A stretch of 64,000 bases of DNA. Source: an uncultured Bacilli bacterium. Its GTDB lineage: Bacteria > Bacillota_I > Bacilli_A > RF39 > UBA660. The position numbers were made by a program, and so were the translations under genes. Shown here one piece after another: positions 15,852 to 52,370 of the stretch. The stretch's first letter is position 1, and each line of letters begins with the position of its first letter. The DNA lies in assembly GCA_947623685.1 (NCBI GenBank), contig CANQHF010000001.1, positions 19,619-83,618 on the forward strand. The letters are read 5' to 3'. The notes beneath the pieces were generated by a model. The model was not told the origin of the DNA, ran no database searches, and saw only the letters and a list, made by a program, of their open reading frames with translations.

Positions 15852-16514
15852 CTATGAATCAGTTGTACTATACGTCAATGTTATATCTCCAAATGATACG
15901 TCGAAGTCGCCGTCTGCAAGTGGAGGATTATCAAGGTGACGTGCATAAGCCGTCCATACATAAATTTTTTCTGATGCTCCTTTTGCTAATGGATGATTAG
16001 TTACAGTTTTCGTGCTTCCTACACTATATAAAGGATTATTACTTGTTACATCATCACCTAAACTTATGGTTAATGCTATCTTTTTACAAACTTCATCTAC
16101 TAAAGTTTGTGATGTGCCTTGTTTTGCAGTACATGTTTTTTTACCAAACTCAATTTTCTTTAAATATGCTACGTAACTTCCTTCATTTCTTACGTAAAAT
16201 GTATATGAAGCAGAAGAATCTGGCTTTTTAAACGTTACTTTTATTCCAGTTATTTGTGGATGTAATGGATCAGTATTATTTATCGTTGCGGGTGTTGCAG
16301 TAGCATTAAGACTTCCTGGCGTAATAGTATTAGTTTGAAGGCTATCTTTTGAACTTGAAAACAAAACTTTAAAGTTTGATGGATCTGGGGTTACCGTTGC
16401 TCCTTGTTTTATTATTAGGTTATTAGAAAATACTGAAAATCCTATTGATAAGCTTACTACCACTGCAAGTAAACATAGTATTATTATAACTTTGTTATTA
16501 TTTCTCTTGTGCAT
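15852..16514 (-). CDS. Secreted protein, phase-variable paralog family (dispersed copy)
   Basis: 220 aa. N-terminus K-rich + hydrophobic + SIGFSVFSNNL...TVTPDPSNFKVLFSSS, and C-terminus DGDFDVSFGDITLTYSTTDS, both shared with 40722-43079. Preceded by the poly-G promoter module. Confidence 0.75.
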   Translation of the reverse strand: MHKRNNNKVIIILCLLAVVVSLSIGFSVFSNNLIIKQGATVTPDPSNFKVLFSSSKDSLQTNTITPGSLNATATPATINNTDPLHPQITGIKVTFKKPDSSASYTFYVRNEGSYVAYLKKIEFGKKTCTAKQGTSQTLVDEVCKKIALTISLGDDVTSNNPLYSVGSTKTVTNHPLAKGASEKIYVWTAYARHLDNPPLADGDFDVSFGDITLTYSTTDS

Positions 16515-21033: not shown

Positions 21034-22683
21034 TTAATCTATTTTATAAGGATTATTAATAGATCCATCTCCATATGTATAAGTTACATCATTTTTTAAT
21101 GATACACTTGGGTTAACACTAGCAGTTTCTTTTAGACGTTTAGAGTCAAATTTACCATTATTAATAACATATCTATAGAACTCATTATTGATATTTTCTT
21201 CAGCAAGTTTCATAGTAAATAACCACATTGGATTACCAGACGTATAAGGTAAATACGATGATGTTGGAGACAAATTAGCACTTATTCCTGCAAGCATCGC
21301 CTCATCTGATGTTAATAATGCTACCGGGTAAGTAATTTTTAGTGTTACTAAATCTGAATTCCACTCGCCGGCAAGACTATACATGGTAATAGGAGCAGTG
21401 CCATATCCTAAATATGGTTTACCATTACTAATCCTAGTATCAGCAGATTGTGAATCAGGATCATAAATAAATTCATTCCATATGGTATCTTCTAATTTAA
21501 GAGTGTATTTTGTCATATTTTGTGAATACCAATTATCTATATAGTTATGTATATCCAAAAAAGGTGTGGAAAAACCATTAAGCATTTCACCACCATAAAA
21601 ATTAGCATCCTCATCTTTATCATATTCAGTATTTCCAATACTTGATATGGCCGAGCATACTCCATTTACTGGTTTCCCACTATAAACTATTTTTATTCCG
21701 CCAGTATCAGTTGTTCTTACTATCTTCCAGCAAAAGTTTGCAAATAATACATTATTATTTAACGTGTTATCTCCCCTATAATAATATATTGGATATTTAT
21801 CACTACTTGTTGATGAAAATTTGTACTTTCCTTGTCCATTAGTACTAGATGATGGTTTTGTAAAATCTATTTTACTATCAGATGTTGCACCATCTTTTAT
21901 GGTAGCATAAAGACTTTTAGGTTTTAATCCCTCAATTACCAAATCACCAGTTACATTTTGGATGGTAAATTGACCATTTTGATATGTATATTGACTACTT
22001 GTTAATGCTTTACCACCTTGCGTTATATTAAATACCGTATAACCAGTACCTATATCTATATTTAATGTATCTTCATCTAATATCTCTGTTGGTAAATTTG
22101 TGAAGGATGCTGATGTTATATTTTTATAAGTTATCTTATGATATGTTCTAAAATCAAATCCTAGATTAAAAGTATAATCTTTTGTCGCTGTAGCAGCATT
22201 ATATTTACCATCTTTATATTTTATTACTATGTCAATTGTTCTTTTAGCGCCCATAGTACATTTTATAGTGCTTAAATTATCACATATTTTAGATTTTTCT
22301 GGAAAAATTGTTGCATATGTTAAATCAGCTGGTAAGACTTCTGCTATATATTTAAAAATGCCAACTTCTACATTTCCTATATTAGTTATTTCTACCTTAT
22401 ATGTTACGGTTGAGTTTGCATTTGGAAGTCTTACGCTTCCGCTTATGTTAGATACGTTATAATCTTCCCAGTTTGATATACCACCATTATTACCTTGTGC
22501 AGTAACATTTGTTACCCTAACATCTTTTTCTACTCTTACTACCGCTTTAATATCTTTCACGTTTAGTTTAGTATTAAATGCTGAATAACCCACGGATATT
22601 AGTAAAGTCATTATTACCATTACGCTTGCTATTATACTTGGCACTTGCAATCTTTTTTGTTTTTTCAACAGAATCATCTCCAC
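21034..22683 (-). CDS. Large secreted protein sharing the family signal peptide and promoter module
   Basis: 549 aa with N-terminus ...LLISVGYSAFNTKLNVK (TasA/SipW-cognate-like) and a Thr/Asn/Gly-rich beta-type ectodomain. The ORF track starts at GTG 22683; in-frame ATG 22677 or TTG 22668 may be the real start. Poly-G promoter module upstream. Confidence 0.7.
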   Translation of the reverse strand: MEMILLKKQKRLQVPSIIASVMVIMTLLISVGYSAFNTKLNVKDIKAVVRVEKDVRVTNVTAQGNNGGISNWEDYNVSNISGSVRLPNANSTVTYKVEITNIGNVEVGIFKYIAEVLPADLTYATIFPEKSKICDNLSTIKCTMGAKRTIDIVIKYKDGKYNAATATKDYTFNLGFDFRTYHKITYKNITSASFTNLPTEILDEDTLNIDIGTGYTVFNITQGGKALTSSQYTYQNGQFTIQNVTGDLVIEGLKPKSLYATIKDGATSDSKIDFTKPSSSTNGQGKYKFSSTSSDKYPIYYYRGDNTLNNNVLFANFCWKIVRTTDTGGIKIVYSGKPVNGVCSAISSIGNTEYDKDEDANFYGGEMLNGFSTPFLDIHNYIDNWYSQNMTKYTLKLEDTIWNEFIYDPDSQSADTRISNGKPYLGYGTAPITMYSLAGEWNSDLVTLKITYPVALLTSDEAMLAGISANLSPTSSYLPYTSGNPMWLFTMKLAEENINNEFYRYVINNGKFDSKRLKETASVNPSVSLKNDVTYTYGDGSINNPYKID

Positions 22684-22699
22684 AATTTTTCAATTTCCT

Positions 22700-22760
22700 A
22701 TGTTAATAATATCACTAACCCCCCCCCGGTCAAGTTTTTTAAAAAATTGTGGAAAACAAA
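22700..22760 (-). promoter_or_regulatory. Family promoter module with G9 tract (C tract 22719-22727)
   Basis: Minus strand reads ...TTGACC-G9-TTAGTGA-TATTATTAAC; the upstream block is slightly diverged (TTTTTTAAAAAA). Confidence 0.55.
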
Positions 22761-22805
22761 TGAAAAGTTGTTTACATATATTTTTTATTATTGTATAATT
22801 TATTT

Positions 22806-22897
22806 AGTGAGAGCAACCTACTAGGTTAGTTTGCTTTCCAAAAAGATTTGGAAAGATACACTTACCCATTTGGGTAAGTGTATCTTTTATTTTTTAC
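22806..22897 (+). ncRNA. Candidate small RNA (possible type I antitoxin)
   Basis: Plus-strand promoter TTTACA(22771-22776)-17 nt-TATAAT(22794-22799). No ORF follows. The transcript ends in a 13-bp perfect hairpin (22855-22884) plus a T-rich tract. It is convergent with a small hydrophobic peptide ORF. Confidence 0.3.
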
Positions 22898-22973
22898 ATA
22901 TTAGTAATACCAAGACGCAAAAAAGTAAAATGATTATTACTTTAAGAAATATTATTTCTTTTTTCATAAGCAT
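22887..22973 (-). CDS. Small hydrophobic peptide (28 aa), candidate type I toxin
   Basis: Reads MLMKKEIIFLKVIIILLFCVLVLLICKK with an AAGAGGGGTGGTG RBS. Below the 60-aa ORF-track cutoff; single TM helix with a lysine-rich C-terminus. Confidence 0.3.
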   Translation of the reverse strand: MLMKKEIIFLKVIIILLFCVLVLLICKK

Positions 22974-23080
22974 CACCACCCCTCTTTTTAAAGGAAAAGT
23001 GGAAAGATAAACCAACCCAATATAAGTTGCCCTCATATTAATATTTAGCCATAACTTTTAAAATCCCCCTAAGTTTTTGA

Positions 23081-23260
23081 AAAAAAATTAAAAAAATATG
23101 CTTTTTTTCTCATTGTTTTAATTTATTATTTATGAATCAGTTGTACTATACGTTAAAGTTATATCGCCAAACATAACATCATCTTTCTTTTATTTACTAT
23201 GTTTATAATATCCCCATACCGGTAGTTTTTTGAAAAATTGTAGAAAACAAAAAACCATAT
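23081..23260 (-). pseudogene. Deletion remnant of a family gene (3' end fused to 5' UTR + degenerate promoter module)
   Basis: 23131-23172 equals the last ~41 nt of the family ORF (..ITLTYSTTDS*), joined directly at a 7-nt microhomology (GATGTTA) to family 5'UTR sequence. The promoter module is degenerate (CCCCATACC; GGTAG for GGTCAAG). The family 3' flank is conserved at 23081-23130. Confidence 0.6.
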
Positions 23261-23301
23261 GAGTTTTATCATATGGTCTTTTTTAATTAAGTCTTTAGAT
23301 T

Positions 23302-24987
23302 TTATACAAGGGCGAATATTATTATTGAAGTAATTATAATAACTACTAACAATGCTAATAATACTTTCCAAATGTATTTAAACCATTTTCCATAAGGAAT
23401 ATCTAGGTAATATAAACCAATTACTAATCCAACTGATGTTGGTGCTATTAACATTACTAGATTATAAATACTTTGCATTATGAATGCTATTACTCCGTAA
23501 TAATCAGTATTAGAAATAGCTGTTGTAAATACTGGGCTTAAAGTTGATACAAAGTAATAGAAATCACCGGTTAACACACTACCAACCAATGATGCAATGG
23601 TTGCGGTTGCTATGTTAAATCCTTTAGACCAAGATAATATCCAATTTGTAATGGTTATATTAATACCAGTTGTTACCATTATTACTAATACAATACTTAT
23701 AAGCATTGCGGTAATTGCTACTGGTAAAACCTTCTTAATTCCAGCTGTTTCAGTTGCAACAAAATCATTAAATTTGATTTTAGATGCTACTGCTATTATA
23801 GCAGTAACTATGAATACAAATATTGAAACATCTGACATTGCCCATGATCCATAAGCATTAATTACACCAGTTGTTGTTCCAAGTGATGCATTTTGTGCTA
23901 CAGGTGCTCCAATTATGTTACTAAATATTGCATAATTACCAATCTTAAGAGTTCCTAACCAAGTATTAAAATCAGTAAATGCGGTAAATTTAGCAAATAG
24001 TGATTCCCAAGGAATAATTGAACCAACTACAAATAATATAAATATTACTAAACTTGTTTTAAATAATACGCAAGTTCTTCTTTCACTATTAACTGGAATT
24101 TTACCTTCTTTATCACTTTTTTCAGTTAATACCGTTATGAATTCTGCAATTGATAAAATAGTTGGAATAAATGTCCAGCAAAATAAAACAGATAATATAC
24201 CAGCTTTTATTTTACCAGCATAAAACTTATTTATACCAATAGTACCAAATAAAATTGTTAAAATAGCATATACAACTTTATTAACTTTTTTATCATTAGT
24301 TTTTGTATTAACTTTTTTTACTGCGTCTTTCTTTTCTTCTTTCTTTGTTACCTTAGATGCTTTTTTATCTGTTTTAGCTTGTTTTACAGCTTTAGCCTTT
24401 CTTGGTGCAACAAAGAATATTAATATTGCTAATGCTATAACCAAAACAATTACTTTAACTAATAGTAACGTATTTAACTCTAGTTTAAGAGCATTAAATA
24501 AAGTGTTATTATAAATTCCACACATTGAACCAACAATAGATGCAATTATCGTTGATGATAAGATTACTTTTTTATCTATTTGTAGTTCTTTCATAACTTT
24601 ATATACGAAAGGAATAAATAAAAGTAAAATCATTGCATCACTTACAACACAAGCTAAAACACCAAAGATAATAATTGTAATTGCAACTAAAAGTCCTTTT
24701 TTATTTTCAAATAATTTAGCAGTTTTTTTAATAAAATTATTATAAACATCTAATTTAGATAAAATAGCATATAAACATGCAGTTGCTATTAAAAATACTA
24801 CTATTTGATTAAAATAAGATATAGAAATACTTAAGTTAGAAAGTAACGACCATATTCCTACAGCAGAAATGGTATCTGCGTTTACGTTTCCACTATAATC
24901 AACGTAAGAGCCAGGTACAAATAAAGTAAGTAACCAAGCTACAAACACGGTTATTGCTAAAACCTTAAATAAATTATATTTTTTCAT
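23302..24987 (-). CDS. YfcC-like polytopic transporter-family membrane protein with inserted TM2 domain
   Basis: 561 aa with ~12 TM helices. A central K-rich linker is followed by a TM2-domain-like segment (ILFGTIGINKFYAGKIKAGILSVLF). Confidence 0.4.
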   Translation of the reverse strand: MKKYNLFKVLAITVFVAWLLTLFVPGSYVDYSGNVNADTISAVGIWSLLSNLSISISYFNQIVVFLIATACLYAILSKLDVYNNFIKKTAKLFENKKGLLVAITIIIFGVLACVVSDAMILLLFIPFVYKVMKELQIDKKVILSSTIIASIVGSMCGIYNNTLFNALKLELNTLLLVKVIVLVIALAILIFFVAPRKAKAVKQAKTDKKASKVTKKEEKKDAVKKVNTKTNDKKVNKVVYAILTILFGTIGINKFYAGKIKAGILSVLFCWTFIPTILSIAEFITVLTEKSDKEGKIPVNSERRTCVLFKTSLVIFILFVVGSIIPWESLFAKFTAFTDFNTWLGTLKIGNYAIFSNIIGAPVAQNASLGTTTGVINAYGSWAMSDVSIFVFIVTAIIAVASKIKFNDFVATETAGIKKVLPVAITAMLISIVLVIMVTTGINITITNWILSWSKGFNIATATIASLVGSVLTGDFYYFVSTLSPVFTTAISNTDYYGVIAFIMQSIYNLVMLIAPTSVGLVIGLYYLDIPYGKWFKYIWKVLLALLVVIIITSIIIFALV

Positions 24988-40721: not shown

Positions 40722-41417
40722 TTATGAATCAGTTGTACTATACGTTAATGTTATATCGCCAAACGTAACATCAAAGTCTCCGTCAGCGAATACATTATTA
40801 TTATTATTTTTATAAAAAATAGAAATAATAATATATTTAAAAGTTTCTTTTTCTAAAGGATGTTCTGTTATATTATCTCGTGTAGTTTTTAAACCTTCTA
40901 TATTCCACGCACTAAGGGAAACGTCATTACCATCATAATGTATTTCAATTATTATACCTTCACAGACTTTATCTACTAAATCTTGTGATGTACCTTCTTT
41001 GGCAATACATTTTTTATCTCCAAATTCTATTTTCTTTAAATATGCTGTATACTTTCCTTGGTTTGTAACATAAAACCCCCAATTAACAAGATCATCTGGA
41101 TTTGTAAGCGTTGCTTTTAATCCAGTTATTTTTGGATGCAATGAATCACTATTATCTATTGTTGCAGGAAATCCCAATGCAGTACCTTTAATAACACGAT
41201 AATTAAGATCTCCAGCTACCACACTATCTTTTGAACTTGAAAACAAAATCTTAAAGTCTGATGGATCTGGTGTTACTGTTGCAGTTGAATTAATATCTAG
41301 ATTTTTAGAAAATGCTGAAAATCCTATTGATAAGCCTATTACTCCAATCATAAGTACCATGATTATTATTATTTTAGAGTTTTTATTATATCTTTTTCTT
41401 GTTCTTTTACTATTCAT
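40722..41417 (-). CDS. Secreted protein, phase-variable paralog family (array member 3)
   Basis: 231 aa with N-terminus MNSKRTRKRYNKNSKIIIIMVLMIGVIGLSIGFSAFSKNLDINSTATVTPDPSDFKILFSSS, conserved central KYTAYLKKIEFGDKKCIAKEGTSQDLVDKVCEGI, and C-terminus DGDFDVTFGDITLTYSTTDS. Confidence 0.8.
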   Translation of the reverse strand: MNSKRTRKRYNKNSKIIIIMVLMIGVIGLSIGFSAFSKNLDINSTATVTPDPSDFKILFSSSKDSVVAGDLNYRVIKGTALGFPATIDNSDSLHPKITGLKATLTNPDDLVNWGFYVTNQGKYTAYLKKIEFGDKKCIAKEGTSQDLVDKVCEGIIIEIHYDGNDVSLSAWNIEGLKTTRDNITEHPLEKETFKYIIISIFYKNNNNNVFADGDFDVTFGDITLTYSTTDS

Positions 41418-41439
41418 TTTTTCCCACCTTGTTTCAATT

Positions 41440-41500
41440 TACTATGTTTATAATATCACTTACCCCCCCCCGGTCAAGTTTTTGAAACAATTGTGGAAAA
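41440..41500 (-). promoter_or_regulatory. Family promoter module with G9 tract (C tract 41463-41471)
   Basis: Minus strand reads GTTTTCCACAATTGTTTCAAAAAC-TTGACC-G9-TAAGTGA-TATTATAAAC...AAGGTGGGAAAAAATG. Confidence 0.6.
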
Positions 41501-41600
41501 CAAATTATAGATTTGTAAAATAATTTAACTTAGTAATTGCAAAATAAATTATTCAAAAAATATGCTTTCTTTTGCATATTCCATTGTTTTAATTTATTAT

Positions 41601-42269
41601 TTACGAATCAGTTGTACTATATGTCAAAGTCAAATCACCAAACTCTACATCAAAGTCGCCGTCTGCAAGTGTCGCTTTAGAAGAGTAGTCAATCTGAATA
41701 GCAACATGTTTAAAAGTCCCTTTTTCTAAAGGATGATCTGTTATATTATCTTTTGTAGTAGTTAAACCAAGTATATTCCAACTACCAGCGTCATCATCAT
41801 AATATATTCGAAGTTCTATACCTTCACAAGCTTTATTAACTAGGTCTTGTGATGTTCCGTCTTTTGCAGTACATTTTTTCTCTCCAAACTCTATTTTCTT
41901 TAAATATGCTGTGTATTTCCCTTGGTTTGTAACATAAAACCACCATTCAGCAGCTTTACCTGAACCAGTAAACGTTGCTTTTAAATTACTAATAGTCGGG
42001 TGTGCCGGATCACTATTATTTATTGTTGCAGCTGTTCCTTGCACATATAATGGGTTAATAGGATTAGTTTCAACTGTCGTGTTTGAACTTGAAAATAATA
42101 CCTTAAAGTCTGATGGATCTGGTGTTACTGTTGCAGTTGAATTAATATCTAGATTTTTAGAAAATGCTGCAAAACCAATTGATAAGCCTATTACTCCAAT
42201 AGTAAGTACAATGATTATTATTATTTTAGAGTTTTTATTATATCTTTTTCTTGTTCTTTTACTATTCAT
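41601..42269 (-). CDS. Secreted protein, phase-variable paralog family (array member 2)
   Basis: 222 aa with the same N-terminal 60 aa and C-terminal DGDFDVEFGDLTLTYSTTDS; the central region is divergent. Confidence 0.8.
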   Translation of the reverse strand: MNSKRTRKRYNKNSKIIIIIVLTIGVIGLSIGFAAFSKNLDINSTATVTPDPSDFKVLFSSSNTTVETNPINPLYVQGTAATINNSDPAHPTISNLKATFTGSGKAAEWWFYVTNQGKYTAYLKKIEFGEKKCTAKDGTSQDLVNKACEGIELRIYYDDDAGSWNILGLTTTKDNITDHPLEKGTFKHVAIQIDYSSKATLADGDFDVEFGDLTLTYSTTDS

Positions 42270-42284
42270 TTTTCCACCTTGTTT

Positions 42285-42350
42285 TAATTCCTATGTTTAT
42301 AATATCACTAACCCCCCCGGTCAAGTTTTTTCAAAAATGGGTGGAAAACA
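42285..42350 (-). promoter_or_regulatory. Family promoter module with G7 tract (C tract 42312-42318) and diverged upstream block
   Basis: Minus strand reads ...CACCCATTTTTGAAAAAAC-TTGACC-G7-TTAGTGA-TATTATAAAC. Spacer is 2 nt shorter than in the other copies. Confidence 0.6.
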
Positions 42351-42401
42351 AATTGAAAAAAATATGTTTTTTTTGTATGTTTTATTACTTTAATTTATTA
42401 T

Positions 42402-43079
42402 TTACGAATCAGTTGTACTATACGTTAAGGTTATATCTCCAAACTCTACATCAAAGTCTCCATCTGTAACAGGAGCATTAGCATTATAAATACCAATAGC
42501 AATCCGTTTAAAAGTGCCTTTTTCTAAAGGATGATTTGTTATATTTTCTTTTGTAGTAGTTAAATTAGGTATATCCCAACTACCAGTGCTACGATCATAA
42601 TATATTTGAAGGTTCATATATTCACAAGCTTTATCAACTAAAGCTTGTGATGTTCCTTCTTTGGCAATGCATTTTTTAGTTCCAAAATCTATTTTCTTTA
42701 AATATGCTGTATATTTTCCTTGATTGGTTACAAAAAATTCCCATTCAACCATTTGGTTTGATTTAGTAAACGTTGCCTTTATGCCTGTTATTTTTGGATG
42801 CAATGGATCTTTATTATCTATTGTTGCAGTAGTTCCTGTCGCATTAGCACTTTTAAGACTAACACCAATAGGATTAGTTGCAACAGTTGTTTCTGAACTT
42901 GAAAACAAAATTTTAAAGTCTGATGGATCTGGTGTTACTGTTGCAGTAGAATTAATATCTAAATTTTTAGAAAATGCTGAAAATCCTATTGATAATCCTA
43001 TTACTCCAAATGTAAGTACCATGATTATTATTATTTTAGTGTTTTTATTATATCTTTTTCTTGTTCTTTTACTGTTCAT
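42402..43079 (-). CDS. Secreted protein, phase-variable paralog family (array member 1)
   Basis: 225 aa with the same N-terminal signal region and C-terminus DGDFDVEFGDITLTYSTTDS. Confidence 0.8.
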   Translation of the reverse strand: MNSKRTRKRYNKNTKIIIIMVLTFGVIGLSIGFSAFSKNLDINSTATVTPDPSDFKILFSSSETTVATNPIGVSLKSANATGTTATIDNKDPLHPKITGIKATFTKSNQMVEWEFFVTNQGKYTAYLKKIDFGTKKCIAKEGTSQALVDKACEYMNLQIYYDRSTGSWDIPNLTTTKENITNHPLEKGTFKRIAIGIYNANAPVTDGDFDVEFGDITLTYSTTDS

Positions 43080-43104
43080 TTTTTTCCACCTTGTTTTAAT
43101 TTCC

Positions 43105-43170
43105 TATGTTTATAATATCACTAACCCCCCCCCGGTCAAGTTTTTGAAACAATTGTGGAAAACAAATTAA
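43105..43170 (-). promoter_or_regulatory. Family promoter module with G9 tract (C tract 43125-43133)
   Basis: Minus strand reads GTTTTCCACAATTGTTTCAAAAAC-TTGACC-G9-TTAGTGA-TATTATAAAC. Confidence 0.6.
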
Positions 43171-52219: not shown

Positions 52220-52370
52220 TATAACAGCTCCTTTCTTAATTATTTTATCATTTCCAAAGTTATAAAAGTTAATTAAAAAACAATGAATAAATCATAAAAA
52301 AATAAAGTAAAGATTATTTTTATCTCTACTTTATTATTATCCATAACTTTTAAAAATCCCCTTTATTTTA

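Follow-up and report, generated by a model that had tools for sequence, protein, structure and literature searches.

The locus and the gene family

The window is the whole stretch of DNA that we analysed, 64,000 nucleotides with 28.6% GC from an uncultured gut member of the class Bacilli (about 29% GC). The nearest relatives of this host in the genome databases are Candidatus Aphodocola and MAGs of the 'Clostridium sp. CAG:594' type, at 76% identity or less in a neighbouring transporter protein. Five genes on the minus strand of the window, f16, f22, f40, f41 and f42, have one type of promoter in common. Four of them are paralogues of 220-231 aa that all have a hydrophobic segment at the N-terminus (..GLSIGFSAFS..) and an unvarying C-terminal sequence, ..ADGDFDV(E/T)FGDITLTYSTTDS. 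The intact copy f16 (15852-16514, with its promoter to 16600) encodes 220 aa and has a promoter with a run of nine Gs. The other three, f40 (40722-41417; 231 aa; G9), f41 (41601-42269; 222 aa; G7) and f42 (42402-43079; 225 aa; G9), form the tandem array f42-f41-f40 (40722..43170), in which each gene has a promoter of its own. The fifth gene, f22 (21034-22683, with its promoter to 22760), encodes a 549-aa secreted protein that is not a paralogue of the family, and its promoter (22706-22733) is of the family type, TTGACC-G9-TTAGTGA-TATTAT.

We found 133 homologues of the family, none of them annotated, more than 20 of which appear to be from the host species. Family members stand solo or in arrays with no more than five members, among them tandem arrays in which three to five cassettes follow one another, and the C-terminal motif is conserved across 85 family proteins. 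Pfam has no match to any of the five family proteins, and a search of the family proteins against NCBIfam returns nothing relevant at E values up to 1. The AlphaFold2 model of a family protein (pLDDT 87.8) has one long N-terminal (TM) helix and a beta-sandwich, for which Foldseek reports weak matches to carbohydrate-binding modules, to Bd1399 and to the TasA fibre, with TM-scores of at most 0.29. On this model, the family is predicted to consist of secreted or membrane-anchored beta-sandwich proteins of about 220 aa, of the surface type. The N-terminus of f22 carries a ..SVGYSAFNTKLNV.. segment, and homologues of f22 carry DUF6273 (PF19789), to which some add a camelysin/TasA domain (PF12389), a type IV pilin N-methylation motif (PF07963) or a VWA domain. 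This suggests that f22 and its homologues belong to a wider set of fibre or adhesin proteins with the same export signal.

A family cassette reduced to its two ends

Between f22 and the upstream 561-aa TM2/CitMHS transporter gene (tm561) lies a segment of the minus strand, 23248-23097, that aligns with the family cassettes from the upstream box to the 3' flank and has no ORF body. We call this segment the stump. Its upstream boundary is the terminator hairpin of tm561 (23249-23283, minus strand), which is outside it. Reading along the minus strand, the upstream region (23226-23248) is GTTTTCTACAATTTTTCAAAAAA where the family has GTTTTCCACAATTGTTTCAAAAAC, and it includes a decayed upstream box (23239-23247) that reads TTTTCTACA, to be compared with the TTTTCCACA that a multiple alignment shows in the family and in the wider clade. 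It is followed by a dead -35 element and a collapsed or interrupted G tract (23211-23225; CTACC and GGTATGGGGA, against TTGACC, G7-9 and T(T/A)A(G/T)TGA in the family), an intact -10 hexamer TATTAT (23205-23210), a 5'UTR (23175-23200; ATAGTAAATAAAAGAAAGATGATGTT, ..AAAGAAAGATGATGTT) of the subfamily of f16 and the copies P0134 and P0138, and a retained start codon ATG (23172-23174). Directly after the ATG, and in frame with it, comes a coding remnant (23130-23171; TTTGGCGATATAACTTTAACGTATAGTACAACTGATTCATAA, TTTGGCGAT...TCATAA) made of the last 13 codons of a family ORF and its stop; ATG and FGDITLTYSTTDS together leave a stub of 14 codons. The last part is about 33 nt of inter-cassette flank (23097-23129; ATAATAAATTAAAACAATGAGAAAAAAAGCATA, ATAATAAATTAAAACAATG..GCATA), as found after f41 and f42, in which the left arm of a small hairpin present after f41 is gone. 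The T-rich sequence at 23080-23096 is common to the copies of another repeated module, and the stump's own 3' flank is therefore limited to 23097-23129.

BLAST pairs each part of the stump with an intact cassette: 52 nt with the 3' end of f40 (96%, E 3.5e-20), 56 nt with the 3' end and flank of f42 (95%, E 3e-20), 38 nt with the promoter and UTR of f16 (95%, E 5e-12) and 28 nt with the upstream box of f22 (93%, E 4e-6). Multiple alignments of promoters and of 3' ends agree with this correspondence, and the part-by-part likeness to intact cassettes is far above chance. The original prediction, made from the letters of the window, had a family 5'UTR and -10 region joined directly to the 3' end of a family ORF, with a decayed tract and -35 element next to them, and the alignments and BLAST matches bear out both statements. 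The identity of the ORF end was also correct; its coordinates were one base off.

The stump is a mosaic of best matches. In the 41 nt before the ATG, it agrees with P0134 at 37 positions and with f16 and P0138 at 36, against 29-30 for f40-f42. At the coding end, the closest copy is f40 (41/42), followed by f42 and P0134 (39/42) and f16 (38/42). Over the first 50 nt of the flank, f41 matches at 42 positions and f42 at 38. The UTR is thus f16/P0134-like, the coding end f40-like and the flank f41/f42-like, and the 3' flanks of the intact f16-subfamily genes are unrelated to that of the stump.

The promoter of the stump compared with intact family promoters

The family promoter in the window reads GTTTTCCACAA..CAAAAAC-TTGACC-G7-9-T(T/A)A(G/T)TGA-TATTAT, in which the run of seven to nine Gs is part of the spacer that separates TTGACC from the extended -10 element, TGATATTAT. 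The spacer has 16 nt in four of the intact copies of the window and 14 nt in f41. Among 11 intact promoters of the host species, spacers range from 14 to 17 nt and are mostly 16-17 nt, the upstream box TTTTCCACA is kept in all 11 (and in other species), and the longest G run is 7-9 in 10; the exception is P0134, with an interrupted CGGGGGTAGG and a run of 5. Runs of at least seven G or C occur five times in the 64-kb window, every time inside a family promoter. Such a poly-G spacer would be expected to switch expression through changes of its length by slipped-strand mispairing. No difference in G-tract length was seen between assemblies of the host species, with two or three assemblies per locus.

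Compared with the 11 intact promoters, the stump has CTACC for TTGACC, no TG, a spacer of 10 nt and at most four Gs in a row. Its G tract can be aligned as interrupted or as collapsed, and the two alignments are equally valid; under either one, the promoter is crippled by several independent lesions. The claim that an interrupted tract would lock this promoter has become moot, as the -35 hexamer and the TG are gone too and there is no ORF to express. A TTCAAA at 23229-23234 (minus strand), 18 nt upstream of TATTAT, remains as a cryptic and weak sigma-70-like match, TTCAAA-18-TATTAT, which makes the full silence of the stump probable rather than proven.

Two other promoters show related sequence changes. 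The P0134 promoter (L045:5936-5965) reads TTGACC-CGGGGGTAGG-TATATGA-TATTAT with a spacer of 17 nt, and from its sequence this copy seems to be locked in the optimal 'on' spacing, with a tract that can slip no more. Upstream of the -35 element of f22, strains of the host species differ (window 22736-22760, L001:12205-12230): the window reads CCACAATTTTTTAAAAAAC, while the assemblies L001 and L002 have the family consensus, CCACAATTGTTTCAAAAAC. The variant of the window resembles the CTACAATTTTTCAAAAAAC of the stump at the G-to-T position, and a short conversion tract from the adjoining stump is possible.

The junction

The join between the two ends of the cassette falls in an imperfect 10-nt repeat (23172-23181, minus strand) that includes the ATG. 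Homology to f16-type cassettes runs through the ATG (23172), and homology to f40 starts at 23181. The overlap reads TGATGTTATG in the stump and at the start codons of f16, P0134 and P0138, and TGATGTTACG in the ..FDVT.. codons of f40. The original prediction had placed the join in a 7-nt word, GATGTTA. A join inside a short repeat holds up; the exact word has 8 nt (TGATGTTA), it sits within a 9/10 repeat, and the two arms of the repeat are found in different paralogues. Among paralogues with readable DNA, none has both arms. Two genes that are not f16-type, f40 and gene 4 of L048, have the word TGATGTTA in their FDVT codons.

To put a probability on the repeat, we simulated random deletions of 400-750 nt in the four intact cassettes and took the best 10-nt window at each join. 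Only 0.2% of the simulated deletions have at least 9 of 10 matches at the join (P about 0.002), and 5.7% have at least 7 of 10 (P about 0.06). As a 3' arm, f40 matches the repeat at 9 of 10 positions, f41, f42, P0134 and P0138 at 7, and f16 at 4. By these alignments, a short-repeat junction would be significant with an f40-type arm, suggestive with one of the 7/10 arms and unsupported with the f16 arm.

One base of the repeat bears on the mechanism. The stump keeps the T of the ATG where the 3' arm has a C. A clean exchange inside the exact 8-mer is ruled out, since it would give ACG and the ATG is retained. For the T to be there, a mismatch must have been tolerated, the ancestral codon must have been another one, or a C must have changed to T afterwards; if neither of the first two applies, the break has a strict microhomology of 1 nt. 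An ATG is the product expected from slippage if the nascent strand kept the repeat that was copied first and was extended with one internal primer mismatch. A microhomology mechanism for the deletion is plausible but unproven. The proposal of a microhomology-mediated deletion of an entire coding region therefore stands in part: the remnant and the significance of the repeat speak for it, and the lack of a copy with both arms, the retained T and a mosaic that may span two cassettes leave its exact form uncertain.

The stump in other assemblies and in more distant relatives

An identical stump is found in three other assemblies (L001-L003) of the same species from other samples, which have four SNPs relative to the window a few hundred bases away. 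An exact look-up of the tm561 protein retrieves 9 contigs, and all of them have the same structure. Outside the species the nearest relatives are distant: a scan of GTDB genomes with tm561 gives 41 loci, none above 76% identity, and in a protein search with tm561 the range from 73% to 100% identity contains no cluster. For the majority of the distant relatives, tm561 directly adjoins clpC, at a distance of 90-170 nt, and the next relatives are without the whole 2.4-kb insert that comprises the stump, a small-ORF module and f22. Because tm561 adjoins clpC in most distant relatives, we regard the 2.4-kb insert as lineage-specific accessory DNA.

It had been proposed that related strains be compared for an intact gene at this position. 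Strains of the same species are on record and all of them carry the stump, and the nearest other genomes lack the insert; an intact allele was found neither in the same-species assemblies nor in the more distant species (at most 76% tm561 identity). A scan of metagenomes for the UTR of the stump or of the f16 type followed by ATG gave no match. The missing intact allele reflects sampling and is not evidence against a deletion. With no intact allele at the position in any relative that we examined, the deletion is deduced from paralogues alone.

Other species have different genes between tm561 and clpC. In L006 (7881-12042), the genes at the site are for LRR proteins with about 370 and 1008 aa, and in L028 (7936-9370) for two membrane proteins of about 230 aa, in each case with a poly-G promoter of the same kind. 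Going by these sequences, accessory genes for surface or membrane proteins have been inserted repeatedly between tm561 and clpC, in different species.

The neighbouring repeated module

The downstream boundary of the stump is a repeated module (22766-23096; motif TTAGGGGGATTTTAAAAGTTATG..) that is unrelated to the family. Besides the window, we find it at L045:5625-5935 and L049:4500-4830, and at all three loci the first family gene comes directly after it. Sequence identity between the copies is 82%, the changes in the hairpin compensate each other, and all have the motif TTAGGGGGATTT(T/A)AAAAGTTATGGCTAAATATTAATATGAGGG. In the window, the module includes a small hydrophobic ORF (22887-22973, minus strand; MLMKKEIIFLKVIIILLFCVLVLLICKK), a bidirectional terminator (22851-22888) with a 17-bp stem, dG of -24 kcal/mol and z of -10, and a convergent sRNA candidate on the plus strand, which has a near-consensus promoter, TTTACA-17-TATAAT (22771-22799). 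The module has no match in Pfam or Rfam, and an Rfam search over 22600-23400 returns only sub-threshold noise. Its layout is reminiscent of a type I toxin-antitoxin pair whose RNAs overlap at their 3' ends.

We considered 23026-23072 (..CAAAAACTTAGGGGGATTTT..) as a second decayed family promoter and rejected it; the same sequence heads the module at L045 and L049, and a similar motif occurs before comEA. The motif that heads the module, AGGGG(G/A)ATTT(T/C)AAAAGTTATG, is also present after a 961-aa gene of the window (52342-52362, minus strand) and directly upstream of comEA-comEC (L045:6715-6760). From this distribution, an alternative sigma factor, of the competence or sigmaH-like kind, may use the motif as its promoter.

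The most probable origin of the stump

The segment is probably the non-functional deletion remnant of one copy in a large paralogous family of surface proteins. An internal deletion would have brought an f16-type start codon next to the 13 final codons of a family ORF, at the imperfect direct repeat that has TGATGTTATG at the start and TGATGTTACG or a similar sequence in the ..FDVT.. codons, the likely route being replication slippage or microhomology-mediated end joining. Before or after this deletion, the promoter would have lost its -35 element, most of its G tract and the TG. The locus would now be silent with nothing to express, fixed in the sampled population, and a record of turnover in a contingency-gene family. 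The loss of function is supported by the promoter lesions, the mutated upstream box and the mere 14 codons that are left. The stump is a genuine pseudogene remnant, and the kind of gene loss is ordinary.

Going by the alignments, a deletion that spans two cassettes would explain the mosaic of best matches just as well. The deletion would then have run from the start codon of an f16-type gene into the C-terminal codons of a downstream f40/f41-type cassette in a former tandem array, removing at least one and a half genes, the intervening promoter and the flank. This would account for a UTR that is closest to P0134, f16 and P0138 upstream of an end closest to f40 and a flank closest to f41 and f42, in a family where the intact f16-subfamily members have unrelated 3' flanks, where arrays of three to five cassettes exist, and where the word at the junction sits in the FDVT codons of two genes that are not f16-type. 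Gene conversion within a single gene could yield the same mosaic, however, and in L048, the sole array with an f16-type gene among others, the f16-type gene is the last one and not the first. The extent of the loss cannot be measured from the stump. On balance we judge the collapse of an array to be unlikely, though it deserves to be kept in view.

Two further explanations were weighed. In one, the two ends arrived separately, for instance by the copying of a promoter module to a place just before a gene end that had been truncated earlier, and the short repeat is there by coincidence. The promoter module does head unrelated genes as well (f22 in the window, LRR, zinc-ribbon and other genes in other species), and such modules may move or be copied. 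Against this, the UTR and the ATG are of a type peculiar to a single subfamily of these proteins, and the in-frame join falls precisely on the start codon and on a 9/10 repeat (P 0.002). Two independent events with this outcome are far less parsimonious than a single one, and we regard this explanation as highly improbable. In the other, the stump is a functional element, either a gene for a 13-residue peptide (MFGDITLTYSTTDS) or a leader or insulator that acts on the downstream small-ORF module or on f22. The short ORF is intact and in frame, the -10 hexamer survives together with the cryptic TTCAAA-18-TATTAT match, and the sequence is invariant across four assemblies; but the four assemblies are of one species with almost no divergence, so their invariance is uninformative. 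The promoter has multiple lesions, sigma-70-like matches in the region are no more numerous than in shuffled sequence, the flank has no significant RNA fold and no Rfam match, and the other copies of the downstream module, in L045 and L049, have no such stub upstream. A functional role thus seems more improbable still. Finally, an assembly artefact is unlikely, and a metagenome mis-join at the repeat that collapsed a real gene is scarcely credible: although the family consists of repeats and a number of contigs are broken close to its promoters (L002 and L003 stop within this very intergenic region), the shared word of 8-10 nt falls well below the length of any assembler k-mer, and the very same join is present in SNP-distinct assemblies that were made independently, from different samples and by different pipelines (ENA SPAdes-type contigs, Logan).

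As a probable deletion remnant, the stump says less about recombination than had been claimed. The deletion had been presented as direct evidence that the family is recombinationally dynamic, and we do not retain this claim; slippage or an illegitimate event says little on recombination between family members. Another pattern is more informative. Within a subfamily, 52-56 of 57-60 synonymous codons are identical over the first 65 codons, while the figure is about 79% in mid-gene and 58-76% in the conserved C-terminus. With the near-identical promoters, this points to 5' ends that have been homogenised, most simply by gene conversion. The evidence for recombination in the family lies in these homogenised 5' ends and in the mosaic stump, not in the deletion itself.

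The stump itself is a minor and well-delimited case of gene loss in a multigene family of surface proteins, and it shows that the family not only gains cassettes but also loses them. It is of value chiefly because it points to a recurring class of promoters.

The promoter class in other gut bacteria

Among the loci that we fetched for synteny, the TTTTCCACA..TTGAC..G8-13..TATTAT module is present at six loci of other species, with TATTAT or TATAAT as the -10 hexamer (L006:7780-7830, L010:2690-2760, L015:12110-12170, L017:4030-4080, L023:10430-10492 and L028:7860-7915), and 45 public metagenome contigs (L050-L094) have the same promoter module. The genes it heads encode varied secreted or membrane proteins. 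About 25 of the 45 contigs have 23-33% GC and downstream proteins with N-termini of the form ..GYALFSxxLxIxGTAxA... Orthologous promoters with identical flanks differ in their tracts, with 10, 9, 10 and 9 Gs in L055, L058, L060 and L065, and 9 and 10 in L061 and L072, numbers for which homopolymer sequencing error is a possible source. Such differences in tract length in other gut contigs are what a hypermutable tract would give.

A second group consists of contigs with 52-53% GC, mostly of about 35 kb (L052, L053, L056, L063, L064, L073, L079, L081, L092 and L094). They read GGTTTTCCACAGGCT.GATTTGACG(T/C)G8-13TGGTGAGTTATCAT, upstream of a small basic ORF of 111-121 aa, and they may be phages or plasmids with the same arrangement of box and poly-G.

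These cases suggest the possibility, which we put forward tentatively and short of calling it probable, of an undescribed contingency-gene system. A TTTTCCACA box-TTGAC-G8-13-TATTAT promoter would drive large and fast-turnover repertoires of secreted proteins with N-termini ..G(Y/F)A(L/A)FSxxLxIxGTAxA.., maybe TasA-like, across uncultured low-GC gut Bacilli and on the 52-53% GC contigs of about 35 kb; tract slippage would be the switch, the box may be the site of a dedicated activator, and the stump would be one casualty. Our literature searches found no description of the promoter class or of the family. The literature on phase variation in the gut that we did find deals mostly with DNA inversions in Bacteroides and Akkermansia. 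If the tracts do switch expression, this would be a homopolymer-based phase variation in commensal, uncultured gut Firmicutes.

Comparison with known systems

As a deletion, the stump resembles the deletions between short direct repeats that give rise to pseudogene remnants in bacteria, attributed to slippage or illegitimate recombination: the breakpoints appear to be in a short repeat, of which one copy would have been kept, and the flanks are collinear. It departs from such cases in that the repeat is imperfect (9/10), the kept copy is the 5' one with its mismatch, and the intact form is known from paralogues alone.

As proteins, the family members recall the SipW-dependent fibre proteins of Bacillus, TasA and camelysin (Peptidase_M73), in having an N-terminal hydrophobic segment ending in ..G(F/Y)(S/A)AFS.. 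and then a beta-sandwich. The family model has a weak Foldseek match to the TasA fibre 8aur (E 4.5e-3, TM-score 0.29), and some homologues of the f22 protein carry PF12389. Searches of Pfam and NCBIfam gave no match of the family to PF12389 or to SipW-type signal models, and hhalign of the family profile with P0323, a protein that contains PF12389, gives a probability of 2%. We treat 'TasA-like' as a lead and not as a result.

As promoters, those of the family have parallels in the vlp genes of Mycoplasma hyorhinis and in porA and opc of Neisseria, where surface antigens are expressed in an on/off or graded manner through a homopolymer in the spacer between -35 and -10. In addition, the vlp genes are tandem families with gains and losses of members. 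The base of the tract differs (poly-A in vlp), as do the organisms and the proteins from those of the family described here, which is known from sequence alone.

By analogy, the closest described system appears to be the 'C-stretch' of the fim2, fim3 and fimX genes of Bordetella, including its naturally interrupted tracts. In both cases a multigene family of surface or fibre proteins (fim2, fim3, fimX and fimN in Bordetella) has one promoter per copy and a run of C or G that sets the distance to the -10 element. Copies of the Bordetella fim genes with short or interrupted tracts are silent or fixed, as for fimX with C7 and, in B. parapertussis, fim3 with C6TC3 and fim2 with C9TC8 (PMC1891110); the GGTATGGGG of the stump and the CGGGGGTAGG of P0134 are the corresponding interrupted tracts. 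The two systems differ in where the tract lies, since in Bordetella its 7-20 nt separate the site of the activator BvgA from the -10 element, and here 7-9 nt lie between the TTGACC -35 and the extended -10. They differ also in the host, a low-GC Gram-positive here, and in the proteins, which are unrelated. And whereas the silent copies of Bordetella are intact genes, the copy described here is a stump without an ORF.
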